From Escherichia phage vB_EcoM_G2494: a stretch of 64,000 nucleotides of DNA. A model generated the notes under the pieces. The model made no database searches, was not told where the DNA came from, and was given only the letters and a program-made list of their open reading frames with translations. Both the position numbers and the translations under genes were made by a program. Numbering within the stretch: position 1 is the stretch's first letter; each line of letters begins with the position of its first letter. This document shows positions 22,410 through 26,015 of the stretch, in pieces. Location of the stretch: sequence record MK327935.1. One strand, written 5' to 3'.

Positions 22410-22907
22410 ATGTCAGATCTAGGCTTAGATATGAAGCAATTAATGAATTTCGAAAGTCTAGGTCTTCCGGGGTCATTCGACGCGGAAGAAGATCGAGTGA
22501 GCTATGATCCGCTCGTCTTGACTCCGGTCGAAAGTCATCCAGAAGATCGTAATATTGACTTACAACGAGATTATAATGAGGCACGTCAGAATATTCATTT
22601 TCAGAATCAGATGATGATGGACGCCGCAAAGATTTATCTTGAACTGGCAAAAAATAGTGAGTCTCCGAGGTTCCTACAAGCATTTAACGGCCTCATGCAG
22701 CAAATGAGCAACAACAATAAAGAATTGCTGAACATCCATAAGGATATGAAGAAAATCACCGAGCAAGCTGGAGAGAAAAAGAAAGATAATACCCCAGCCG
22801 CACCAGTTAATATCCAGAATGCGACCGTCTTTATGGGTTCTCCTAGTGATTTAATGGATGAAATCGAAGACGAGGAAGCGCGAATTATTGAAGGTGAGAC
22901 AGTATGA
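22410..22907 (+). CDS. 16: terminase small subunit gp16
   Basis: 165 aa; similar to T4 gp16 ([19 protein letters not shown]). Confidence 0.9.
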
Positions 22908-24655
22908 GCGTGATTGAAGGGATTAACGCAATGGCGACGGATGAACACCCGCTACATTTAGCGCATCCGTCTACACTAGAAAATAAAATTGATTCAAATG
23001 GTATTGAATGGATTTTATCAAAGCATGATGATAAATGGTATCCTAAAAAGTTTTCTGACTATCTGAAATTAAACAGACCGCAGAAAATAAGGATGCAAAG
23101 CACTGATCCAACAAATTATAAGTTCTTTAAAGATAGTGACAATATTCGCACGCGGTATATGCGATTAAAGAACTTGCGAAGGGCGAATATTAAAACTCAG
23201 TATACCCCTGAAATGATCGCGGAGTGGAAACGATGCCGTAAAGATATTGTATATTTCGCCGAAACCTATTGCGCAATTACACACATCGACTACGGTACAA
23301 TCAAAGTACAATTGCGTGATTATCAGAAAGATATGCTTAAGATCATGCATGAAAACCGCATGAGCGCACATAAACTCAGCCGTCAGCTAGGGAAAACGAC
23401 CGCTGTAGCAATATTCCTTGCTCACTACGTTTGCTTTAATAAAGACAAAGCGGTAGGTATACTGGCACACAAAGGATCAATGGCAGTTGAAGTTCTAGAA
23501 CGTACTAAACAAGCAATTGAACTATTGCCGGACTTCTTACAGCCTGGAATTGTTGAATGGAACAAGAAATCAATTGTTCTTGAAAACGGTTCAAGTATTG
23601 GTGCTTATGCGTCGTCTCCTGATGCCGTGCGTGGTAACTCTTTTTCGTTTATCTACATTGACGAATGCGTTAGCGGCTTGACCAAAGTTACACTACGTGA
23701 TAAACTAACAGGTGAGATTAAAGAATACACTATGTTAGAGGTTAAGATGATGGCTATTCAGCAAAAGTTGAATAAAATTAAAGAGTTATTACTGCCGCAC
23801 GCAAAAAATCCAAACTTGACTCGCGGTTGGGTTCCTGGCGTAACTATGGATATGTTGGAAGAATACAAAGAGTTTTTCGACACACATTTTCATAAAACCG
23901 AATCCATGAGAGAGTTTATCGCATGTGTAACAAATGATATTCTGGTTCGTCCAGTTTGCTCTACGAAAGGATGTGGTTGTCGTGTGGAATTAAGCAAGAA
24001 TGGTCCATACTATAAGGATAAATGCCATAACTACTGCACAGAAAAATTGCCTGGGCGCTTAGGGAAAATATCATCAAAAATGGTTATCTTCCGTCGTTTT
24101 GAGTGTCCAGAATGCGGGATGTATGCTGTTAAAAATGAGGGTTATCTTTGCCGTAAATGTGGTTACGCAAAACAAGGCGAGGCAATGAAACGTCTATACG
24201 TCGAAAACGGCGATGAAATGCGCAAAAAGTGCAACGGTAAGAAAACACCAGAACAAAGGGCTAAACAGTCCGAGCAAGTTAAACAGCGTATTCTGAATGG
24301 TGAATTTACTCCTAAGACGACTAACCGTCTTAATCACAATCGCATTAAGTATGATGGTCATAACTTTCGTAGCTCATGGGAACTATCTTTCTATAAAGAT
24401 ATGAAAGCTAAAGGCGTTAATATTGAATATGAAACGCTTCGTGTTACATACAAATTTAAAGGAAAGAATCACGTTTATATTACGGACTTCGTAGATCACG
24501 ATAATAAGATCGTTTATGAAGTTAAGCCTAAGCGACTTGTTGAAGATCCAAAAACAATGGCGAAAGAACACGCCGCTATAGAATGGTGTAAAGAAAACGG
24601 ATATACTTTCGAATATATTCACGAGGATTATATTAATGAACTTTTGGAATCTTGA
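22904..24655 (+). CDS. 17: terminase large subunit gp17 N-terminal part (through Walker B IYIDE) + intein N-fragment + in-frame zinc-ribbon/Vsr-like endonuclease module
   Basis: residues 1-254 match T4 gp17 ATPase (Walker A SRQLGKTT, Walker B FIYIDE); Cys255 starts intein block A ([10 protein letters not shown]...); then CxxC pairs and RSSWE...TDFVDHD...YEVKPK nuclease motifs; stop at 24653-24655. Confidence 0.85.
23666..23746 (+). other. intein N-terminal fragment (~27 aa, block A only)
   Basis: [27 protein letters not shown] directly after extein ...IYIDE; followed by internal GAGG and ATG-ATG at 23747. Confidence 0.7.
23747..24652 (+). other. endonuclease module (zinc ribbons + Vsr/PD-(D/E)XK-like domain) in frame with the intein N-fragment, possible internal start at M282
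   Basis: CSTKGCGC...CHNYC and FECPECG...CRKCGY zinc-ribbon pairs; C-terminal [10 protein letters not shown]...[19 protein letters not shown]...[11 protein letters not shown]. Confidence 0.6.
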
Positions 24656-24953
24656 CGGATTCGAAGTTCTCACCGAAAACGGTTTTAAAGATTTTGATGG
24701 CATAAAAGAAACATTTGGTATGATCTGGAAACTAACATTTAGTGATGGATCATACATTGAATGCGCAGAAAGCCATAAATTAAAATCAAGTGACGGCTTT
24801 TTCATTGAAGCCGATGATATAGAGGCTGGATTCGTTACGTCTTCCGGCCTTACTGTCATTAGTAAAGATTATGTTGGTGAAGACTTTTTATACGATCTAA
24901 CTAATGTTGCCGATGGCAACCATTACACTACAAACAATGTAGAATCTCACAAT
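24636..24953 (+). other. intein C-terminal fragment (106 aa, blocks B, F, G)
   Basis: own RBS GAGGA 8 nt upstream of ATG; block B-like [11 protein letters not shown]; block [26 protein letters not shown] followed by extein Cys. Confidence 0.75.
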
Positions 24954-26015
24954 TGCGCGTTTATTAAAAACTGGACCGATTGTTTCCTTGCAATTCAACC
25001 AGTAATTTCTTCCGGTCGTGAATCTAAAATGATCATGACCACGACTCCTAACGGTCTTAATCACTTTTATGATATCTGGCAATCGGCTATTGATGGTAAA
25101 AGTGGTTATGTTCCATATGAGGCGGTTTGGCATTCTGTTAAAGAACGTCTTTACAATAAAGCTGATATATTCGATGATGGTTATGAGTGGTCATCTCAGG
25201 CGATCGCCGGATCTAGTCTTGAGCAATTCTTACAGGAACATAACGCTGAATTTTTCGGTAGTTCCGGTACTCTGATCAGGGCAACCACACTATCAAGATT
25301 ATCCTTCATTGACGTTGTTAACGATAACGGGTTTTATCAGTTTGAGAAACCGAAAGAAGGTAGAAAATATGTTGCTACACTAGATTGCTCAGAAGGTCGA
25401 GGACAGGACTATCATGCATTGCAAATCATTGATATTACTGAATTTCCTTATAAGCAGGTTGCAGTATATCACAGCAATACTACGTCCCATTTTATATTAC
25501 CGGATATTGTCTTTAAATATCTCATGATGTATAACGAATGTCCAGTTTATATCGAGCTAAATAGTACGGGTGTATCTATTGCTAAGTCTCTTGCGATGGA
25601 TCTTGAATATGATAATATTATTTGCGACTCATTCATAGATCTAGGGATGAAACAATCCAAAAGATCTAAAGCAATGGGATGTTCGGCACTAAAAGACTTA
25701 ATAGAAAAAGATAAGCTGATCATTAATCATAAAGGAACTATTCAGGAGTTGCGCACATTCTCCGAGAAGGGAGTAAGCTGGGCGGCAGAAGAAGGTTTTC
25801 ACGATGATTTGGTCATGAGTCTGGTAATATTTGGTTGGTTGACAACTCAAGAAAAATTCGCCGAATATGCAGGAAAAGACGAAATGCGGATCGCCTCCGA
25901 AATATTCCGAAAGGAATTAGATGAATTGGGGGAAGAATACGCGCCCGTGGTAATATATGACGGTGCAAACGGCATCGAAGAATATAGGCCGCGTGAAGGT
26001 CTAACAATGATATAA
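24636..26015 (+). CDS. 17: intein C-fragment + terminase large subunit gp17 C-terminal part (nuclease/translocase)
   Basis: from Cys107 onward ([38 protein letters not shown]...) collinear with T4 gp17 residues after Walker B; overlaps upstream ORF by 20 nt in a different frame. Confidence 0.85.

Follow-up and report, generated by a model that had tools for sequence, protein, structure and literature searches.

A 1288-nt element in the terminase gene of Escherichia phage vB_EcoM_G2494 resembles an atypically split intein with an endonuclease between its pieces

How can a phage make its large terminase subunit if the gene is broken inside the ATPase active site and resumes 1288 nucleotides (nt) later in another reading frame? 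Gene 17 of Escherichia phage vB_EcoM_G2494 (MK327935.1) raises this question. We analysed a 64,000-nt stretch of this genome (the window, to which all coordinates refer), which comes from a T4-like coliphage of the genus Krischvirus (RB49-like). An earlier, sequence-only reading of the window had proposed that gene 17 is split by an intein and that an endonuclease is fused to the shorter piece. We conclude that the 1288-nt insert is very probably a mobile element, in which the two pieces of an atypically split class 1 intein enclose a homing-type endonuclease module. Over 22904-26015, the closest relatives of the window are the phages kaaroe, vB_Eco_SAP, and vB_Eco_TB34 (98.5-98.7% identity), and the order of genes around the locus is the usual one (13, 14, 15, 16, 17, 18, 19, 20).

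Two intein pieces within gene 17

The insert (1288 nt, or 1 mod 3) lies between GAA (Glu254) and TGC (Cys255) of gene 17. The two open reading frames (ORFs) that had been claimed in different frames are both present: ORF1 (22904..24655, + strand) encodes 583 amino acids (aa), and ORF2 (24636..26015, + strand) encodes 459 aa in the +1 frame relative to ORF1, with an overlap of 20 nt (24636-24655). In a single frame, ORF1 encodes residues 1-254 of the terminase (gp17), a 27-aa N-terminal intein piece (IntN), a helix, a cysteine-rich domain, a zinc ribbon, and a TnsA-like PD-(D/E)xK nuclease. ORF2 encodes a 106-aa C-terminal intein piece (IntC) and then residues 255-607 of gp17. The features of the locus are listed below. 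(Some relatives have a three-ORF layout with a separate endonuclease ORF, which we describe later.)

22904..23665, + strand: N-extein of gp17 (aa 1-254), the ATPase's N-terminal part from Walker A through Walker B and the catalytic Glu (IYIDE); matches Pfam Terminase_6N with E = 1e-25
23666..23746, + strand: IntN core, 27 aa (C255-K281 of ORF1), with block A and the nucleophile Cys1; aligned with contiguous mini-inteins
23747..23788, + strand: helix 3' of IntN (aa 282-295), homologous to the C-terminal tail of the N-ORF of three-ORF relatives; the AlphaFold2 (AF2) model has a helix at residues 2-19 of the module
23789..24055, + strand: Cys-rich N-terminal domain of the endonuclease module (aa 296-384), presumed to bind DNA
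24056..24655, + strand: endonuclease core (aa 385-583 and stop codon), with a CxxC...CxxC zinc ribbon at about aa 400-421 and the TnsA-like nuclease
24623..24638, + strand: Shine-Dalgarno (SD) sequence and start of ORF2 (GAGGA at 24623-24627, spacing of 8 nt, ATG at 24636), inside the last codons of ORF1
24636..24953, + strand: IntC (aa 1-106 of ORF2), with blocks B (A44-E-S-H47), F, and G, ending in His105-Asn106
24954..26015, + strand: C-extein of gp17 (aa 107-459 of ORF2 and stop codon), starting with the native +1 Cys (CAF...) and containing the remainder of the ATPase along with the RNase H-like nuclease domain

The outer parts of the two ORFs are the two halves of a terminase. Using phmmer, we found that residues 17-256 of ORF1 match T4 gp17 (PDB 3ezk; E = 1e-114), with the alignment stopping at ...IYIDEC, and that residues 104-426 of ORF2 match residues 254-577 of T4 gp17 (E = 3e-160). 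The C-extein also matches the C-terminal part of Pfam Terminase_6N as well as Terminase_6C. In T4 gp17, MIYID is the Walker B motif and the next residue, Glu256, is the catalytic carboxylate. Because the match of ORF1 ends at IYIDEC, the break lies directly after the catalytic Glu, which agrees with the earlier placement of the break at Walker B (IYIDE|C).

The sequence-only reading had also claimed that 254 + ~353 aa would yield a full-length gp17. Indeed, the predicted product (residues 1-254 of ORF1 joined to residues 107-459 of ORF2) is 607 aa long, aligns without gaps to the intein-less gp17 of RB49, and is identical to it at 605 of 607 positions. The two differences are T27N in the N-extein and Q259K in the C-extein, and Cys107 of ORF2 corresponds to the native Cys255 of RB49 gp17. 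A parallel pair gives a similar result: Shewanella phage Thanatos-2 has the insert and Thanatos-1 lacks it, and the predicted spliced protein of Thanatos-2 is identical to the Thanatos-1 protein at 610 of 611 positions. Excision at the predicted borders would restore the uninterrupted host protein exactly.

Are the segments next to the break parts of an intein? IntC (residues 5-107 of ORF2) matches PDB 6dsl_B ("Consensus engineered intein CatC") with E = 8.6e-13 over 103 residues, and it matches DnaE inteins more weakly (E = 2e-3). This similarity to inteins of solved structure is indirect support for a HINT fold. IntN alone had no match in the PDB, for which it is too short a query. At the same site in gp17, three relatives carry contiguous mini-inteins (Vibrio phage vB_VmeM-32, Desulfovibrio phage 7757, and the metagenome contig L026), and the concatenated IntN and IntC of the split forms align with these from end to end. 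The aligned motifs are CVSGxTxV in block A, S-x-x-H in block B, LYDLxNVxDGxHY in block F, and ...SHN|C in block G. The 27-aa piece that follows IYIDE aligns with the N-termini of the contiguous mini-inteins, so it does contain block A as had been claimed, and the segments that flank the break in Walker B share the frames of the exteins and encode blocks A, B, F, and G.

The contig L026 (OEQO01000047.1, 4898-7003) encodes a contiguous gp17 with a 140-aa mini-intein, which is identical to Thanatos-2 at 24 of 27 positions of IntN and at 97 of 105 positions of IntC; the two sequences are a very recent contiguous/split pair. Because this one intein is nearly identical to both of the Thanatos-2 pieces, IntN and IntC are very probably halves of one HINT domain. 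Relative to the contiguous homologues, the break falls in a loop that follows the first strands and one short helix. With an IntN of about 27 aa (and the 14-aa helix) and an IntC of 106 aa, this is the short-N/long-C split after block A that is seen in AceL-TerL, GOS-TerL, and Cat. Both the match to CatC and the alignment with the contiguous mini-inteins support the earlier assignment to this atypical type.

The residues that would be needed for splicing are present. Cys1 (Cys255 of ORF1) lies directly after IYIDE and is conserved in all of the relatives that we aligned, and block G ends with His105-Asn106 followed by the +1 Cys (...NVESHN|CAF). From Krischvirus to the Vibrio and Desulfovibrio phages, every lineage aligned has Cys1, His47, His105-Asn106, and Cys+1. 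In kaaroe and JK32, the nucleotides of IntN are 100% conserved. The window itself has 5 private non-synonymous changes, which are T27N and D348V in ORF1 and L41I, S44A, and Q111K in ORF2. The change at position 44 affects block B: His47 is invariant, but the window has Ala (GCA, within 24759-24767), as opposed to the Ser (TCA) of the other Krischvirus alleles that we compared and of every other lineage in the alignment. The sequence-only reading had described IntC as 106 aa with blocks B, F, and G and its own ribosome binding site; the size, the GAGGA, and the similarity to CatC bear this out, except that the Ser of block B is replaced by Ala44.

The endonuclease module and its translation

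After IntN, ORF1 continues for about 300 residues, in frame and without a stop codon. The claim that an endonuclease is fused to the N-terminal fragment is correct, and it also holds for Thanatos-2 and for another metagenome contig (L005). The nuclease core matches Pfam PF08722 (Tn7_TnsA-like_N) at 34.5 bits (cut-off 26.5) and PHROG 15427 ("endonuclease") with E = 1e-46, and it scores just under the cut-off for Phage_endo_I (29.0 versus 29.1). In a 12-sequence alignment, E493, D528, E539, and K541 are invariant (WE...YITDF...YEVKP), and these E/D/ExK residues correspond to a canonical PD-(D/E)xK site. The AF2 model is confident in the core alone (predicted local distance difference test, or pLDDT, above 90), with low confidence in the Cys-rich domain. 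When we searched with the predicted core, Foldseek ranked TnsA first, followed by I-Bth0305I and Vsr.

This module had been described as a Vsr/PD-(D/E)XK-like nuclease with two CxxC pairs. The CxxC pairs and the PD-(D/E)xK residues are there, and given the Foldseek ranking, the label is valid at the level of the fold, as the model has a Vsr-like catalytic core. The Vsr-type active site (Asp/His/Asp, EDxHD) is absent: homologues do not share the window's "DHD." Dassa and colleagues (2009; PMC2677866) described a Vsr-like/EDxHD family of homing endonucleases from "fractured genes" and recA introns, to which I-Bth0305I (PDB 3R3P) belongs. Judging from the PF08722 profile and the E...D...ExK residues, the nuclease in the window is TnsA-like and lies outside of that family. 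The Cys-rich domain of about 85 aa has no family match in Pfam, PHROGs, or NCBIfam. It is conserved in all three fused lineages (the window, L005, and Thanatos-2) and is absent from the free endonucleases of 199 aa.

How would the two ORFs be translated? The GAGGA ahead of the ATG of IntC is kept in the Krischvirus alleles, L005, and Thanatos-2, where it is encoded by the ...ED... residues of the endonuclease. Relative to ORF1, IntC is in the +1 frame in Krischvirus and L005, in the +2 frame in Thanatos-2, and in frame 0 in the three-ORF forms; given these frame relations, no lineage is able to read through as one intein. RNA structure at the overlap of ORF1 and ORF2 is not conserved or significant across lineages.

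Alternatively, the endonuclease might be made alone, starting at M282, in which case the read-through from IntN would be incidental and the locus would function like any three-part fractured gene whose endonuclease is free-standing. An internal start of this kind (GAGG-N5-ATG at 23747) was suggested by the sequence-only reading, and the motif is real: GAGG at 23738-23741 is followed after 5 nt by the ATG of M282 and then by a second ATG (M283). Also, the relatives HY03, phiR1-RT, and PspYZU05 do have a 199-aa endonuclease ORF of its own. However, the pair of Met residues is confined to the Krischvirus alleles. The other two fused lineages have Gln-Leu (L005) or Asn-Leu (Thanatos-2) instead, with no other SD-preceded start in frame there, and the GAGG is dictated by the conserved Glu-Val residues of IntN. 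Furthermore, the fusion and its 85-aa domain were retained in three lineages whose synonymous sites are saturated, and we found no late promoter (TATAAATA) in 22904-26010, nor any terminator within the insert. (A local RNA fold at 23700-23790, with a z-score of -2.9, covers neither the GAGG nor the ATG.) We consider it unlikely, though quite conceivable, that the endonuclease functions as a separate protein only. Both the fusion protein and an independently started nuclease could be made, with independent translation possible in Krischvirus.

Distribution, mobility, and alternatives to splicing

Within Krischvirus, about 59 records of gene 17 have no insert at this site, and the split element is present in 6 (kaaroe, SAP, TB34, phiS, JK32, and GoldenSnicker). 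It is 1288 nt long in all 5 of the intein-bearing alleles that we aligned. Elsewhere, the fused layout occurs in Thanatos-2 and in L005. We examined the three-ORF layout directly in Tequatrovirus HY03, Tegunavirus phiR1-RT, and Jiangsuvirus PspYZU05, and annotations suggest that TG1 and several Salmonella and Escherichia phages have it as well. This layout has an insert of 1020 nt and an N-ORF that ends 14-16 aa past IntN; the 199-aa endonuclease is encoded by a separate ORF in another frame, without the 85-aa domain.

A tblastn search with the 106-aa IntC found 81 phage records. A word-indexed search with IntC returned a single fragment, a scan of IMG/VR returned 4 loci (2 of which are known phages), and a DNA-pattern scan of metagenomes returned 4 loci (2 of which are chance matches). 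An exact-sequence lookup of the two proteins of the window found no identical entry in the collection. The arrangement is present, but misannotated, in at least 7 public phage genomes: such loci are annotated as "hypothetical protein," as two "terminase large subunit" entries, or as a "frameshift," and a neighbouring intein is annotated as "DnaB helicase." The Thanatos paper describes the insert of Thanatos-2 as "a 1.2 kbp insertion ... leading to a frameshift."

Several observations bear on whether the element moves and whether it is maintained. Among close relatives, its presence at this exact site is sporadic, and there are signs that it has spread horizontally. The window and JK32 differ by 0.39% in the insert and by 5.7% in the exteins, which is the pattern expected from recent movement between gene 17 backgrounds. 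In comparisons of the window with L005 or Thanatos-2, the proportion of synonymous differences (pS) is 0.65-0.92, or saturated, and the proportion of non-synonymous differences (pN) is 0.11-0.43 for IntN, IntC, and the endonuclease module. Because synonymous sites are saturated and non-synonymous divergence is lower, the intein, the nuclease, and the in-frame junction have all been maintained by purifying selection.

We propose that ORF1 and ORF2 would be expressed from one late transcript to give gp17(1-254)-IntN-endonuclease and IntC-gp17(255-607). Since the start of ORF2 is embedded in the end of ORF1, translation of ORF2 is probably coupled to that of ORF1, and the two proteins would be roughly equimolar. 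The 27-aa IntN would dock with the 106-aa IntC and complete the HINT fold. Trans-splicing by Cys255, Asn106 of IntC, and the +1 Cys would then join Glu254 to Cys255, restoring the ATPase center and yielding a terminase of 607 aa. The by-products would be a 329-aa IntN-endonuclease and the 106-aa IntC, which might remain associated. In a co-infection, the nuclease would cut an intein-less gene 17 near the insertion site, and repair would copy the element in.

Some of our observations weigh against this proposal. Neither intein piece has a match in Pfam, PHROGs, or NCBIfam, and AF2 modeling of IntC alone (from a 2-row alignment) gave a pLDDT of just 39.5, too low to be of use. Ala44 in place of the Ser of block B could slow splicing. 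The constructs of AceL-TerL, GOS-TerL, and Cat that were tested biochemically do not have a 300-aa domain C-terminal of IntN. Finally, the single site that is fully associated with the insert is a synonymous T-to-C change, 4 nt upstream (5 + 5 alleles).

If the intein had decayed, then the halves of gp17 would never be ligated, and the terminase would work as two chains kept together through the intein pieces, in the manner of the Aeh1 NrdA, which is split by a homing endonuclease gene. T4-like phages are known to have unspliced genes in pieces (cited in Dassa et al. 2009, PMC2677866), and the private S44A change affects the Ser of block B. However, every aligned lineage has kept all of the catalytic intein residues, purifying selection acts on the intein, and close homologues splice in vitro (reviewed in PMC11766414). 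Furthermore, an ATPase broken right after its catalytic Glu would hardly tolerate 27 + 106 additional residues at that position. A two-chain terminase is therefore improbable.

Even less probable is a programmed +1 frameshift at the end of ORF1 (UCU UGA C), which would produce one precursor with a contiguous intein and an in-frame endonuclease and would allow splicing in cis. A +1 shift at TCT-TGA-C would enter the frame of ORF2 at Asp7 of IntC, and the motif loosely resembles the CUU UGA C site of prfB. But there is no SD sequence at a prfB-like distance, and the required shift varies: Krischvirus and L005 would need +1, Thanatos-2 would need +2, and the three-ORF forms would need two changes of frame. 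Also, IntC always keeps its own ATG and SD sequence, and fractured genes in general have the end of the endonuclease overlapping the start of IntC.

The wording of the Thanatos paper and an odd 55-nt perfect duplication nearby in the window (see below) might raise the suspicion of a frameshift from sequencing or assembly, or of a group I intron with an endonuclease gene, but we reject both as far as the sequence data go: the same structure is found in the other intein-bearing Krischvirus assemblies compared, with the same 1288-nt insert in independent assemblies from Denmark, Ireland, China, and elsewhere (which also answers the earlier concern about a sequencing error), Rfam has no group I or group II intron match across the region, and the flanks of the insert encode the intein blocks in frame with the exteins.

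If the insert is a split intein with a fused endonuclease, did the fused or the three-ORF layout come first? We computed identity matrices and neighbor-joining trees both for the endonuclease core and for IntC, the latter with the contiguous inteins included; these trees have few taxa and no support values. In both trees, the fused Thanatos-2 adjoins the three-ORF clade (73-74% identity for IntC) and is apart from the fused Krischvirus and L005 (51-57%). On parsimony, the fused state might be the older one, with the three-ORF state derived from it by a deletion of about 268 nt, but we offer this order tentatively. In the model of Dassa and colleagues (PMC2677866), a free-standing endonuclease gene invades a mini-intein, so a fused-first order, doubtful as it is, would contradict their order of invasion for split inteins and fractured genes. 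A broader and similarly speculative reading is that the IntN-endonuclease fusion is the ancestral and functional state: the endonuclease would be made solely as the tail of the terminase N-precursor and released by trans-splicing, the IntN-endonuclease and IntC would together be a two-chain "bifunctional intein," and the free-standing genes would derive from it by the ~268-nt deletion. If so, then the dose and timing of the endonuclease would be tied to the maturation of the terminase.

Other terminase genes are interrupted in different ways. Four Krischvirus records (FL15, MIZ4, MIZ5, and AV108) have an insert of about 990 nt in gene 17. In FL15 (L003, 1501-4317), which is the one of the four that we examined, this is a different, contiguous intein of 331 aa in Walker A (SRQLGK|T). 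Its first residue is Ala, it contains a LAGLIDADG-like motif, and it ends in THN|T. The FL15 record calls it "replicative DNA helicase DnaB"; it resembles a class 3 intein. From the length of their matches, MIZ4, MIZ5, and AV108 probably carry the same intein. In a distant phage (IMGVR_UViG_3300028423_000734, 2711-5264), another atypically split intein interrupts TerL at Walker A (ASRQMGK|C), with a short IntN ORF, a 112-nt gap without an endonuclease, and then IntC-TerL. In Campylobacter phage CPX (2998-4326), an ORF for IntC and the C-terminal part of gp17 lies directly after gp13, and the 3 kb upstream of it contain no N-terminal part of gp17. In Fletchervirus genomes, the two halves of the terminase may be unlinked.

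The window has other unusual features near gene 17. Between genes 14 and 15 lies a GIY-YIG homing endonuclease gene (20752-21507; TIGR01453, E = 4e-10); this second mobile element lies 1.4 kb upstream of the split gene 17. It is present in JSE, TB34, SAP, FL20, MIZ4/5, and AV108 and absent in kaaroe, RB49, and many others. Gene 15 (tail sheath stabilizer) contains a perfect 55-nt tandem duplication (21834-21888 and 21889-21943), which breaks it into ORFs 21508..21897 and 21956..22396. Among the matches listed across this duplication, all are about 55 nt shorter than the query and in at least 2 pieces. The duplication is either an assembly artefact or a disruptive mutation of an essential gene. 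Across the overlap of ORF1 and ORF2, there is also an antisense ORF of 158 aa (24383-24859, minus strand), but nothing supports its being a gene.

Comparison with known systems

The locus is less novel than the sequence-only reading had assumed. The kind of break point was already known: Dassa and colleagues (2009; PMC2677866) described a "fractured gene" at a gp17-like terminase locus from Lake Gatun with the same unusual break point, and, as noted above, at least 7 public genomes have it. Fractured genes have been known since 2009 and atypical TerL split inteins since 2014. Trans-splicing has been reported for AceL-TerL, GOS-TerL, and Cat (reviewed in PMC11766414, citing Thiel 2014, Bachmann & Mootz 2015, and Stevens 2018). 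What is new is the in-frame fusion of IntN to an endonuclease with an extra domain, the TnsA-like nuclease, and the presence of the element in culturable coliphages that have element-free sisters. In the literature that we searched, no paper describes a fused split terminase intein (we compared the original TerL loci through the general statement of Dassa and colleagues), and atypically split inteins (AceL-TerL, GOS-TerL, and Cat) were reported from metagenomic fragments alone. According to a 2024 paper, no inteins had been reported in coliphages.

Atypically split inteins are valued as tools for protein engineering. Here, phages that form plaques on E. coli (Krischvirus, and also Tequatrovirus, Tegunavirus, and others) carry an element of this kind in an essential gene, and because element-free sister phages are available, its splicing, homing, fitness cost, and regulation can be tested with ordinary T4-type genetics. 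The graded series of contiguous, fused and split, and three-ORF forms bears on the origin of split inteins and of fractured genes. That the fusion was kept in three diverged lineages bears on how an intein piece assembles when it is flanked by large domains on both sides.

The locus in the window resembles the Lake Gatun and GOS-TerL loci in that the host is the gp17 of a myovirus, the N-terminal piece contains N1/block A alone, the C-terminal piece is long, and an endonuclease on the same strand lies between them, with its 3' end overlapping the start of IntC. It falls within the definition of a fractured gene by Dassa and colleagues, including the overlap of 6-69 bp (here, 20 nt), except for the free-standing gene and the spacer. 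According to their general statement, the endonuclease of a fractured gene is free-standing and follows 27-51 nt of non-coding DNA, whereas in the window it is in frame with no gap. Also, fractured genes often have a hairpin or a late promoter (TATAAATA) before the endonuclease, whereas the insert in the window has no late promoter and has the extra domain of about 85 aa. The Lake Gatun locus is a fragment from a metagenome, whereas the present element is in culturable coliphages. In the three-ORF relatives (HY03, phiR1-RT/TG1, and PspYZU05), the insertion site is the same, IntC is 56-62% identical to that of the window, and the endonuclease core is 46-48% identical.

As in AceL-TerL and Cat (PDB 6DSL), the IntC pieces are homologous, IntN is about 25-30 aa, IntC is about 104 aa, and the chemistry would be that of class 1 (Cys1/Cys+1). 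In the characterised constructs, IntN terminates freely, whereas in the natural protein from the window, it is enclosed between a 254-aa extein and a 300-aa nuclease module.

In canonical bifunctional inteins such as PI-SceI, an endonuclease of the LAGLIDADG or HNH type lies in frame between blocks B and F. After splicing, the IntN-endonuclease and IntC would likewise amount to a HINT domain with an attached endonuclease. In contrast to PI-SceI, the endonuclease in the window is of the PD-(D/E)xK type, it follows block A, and the chain is nicked after it, so that the intein is in two chains.

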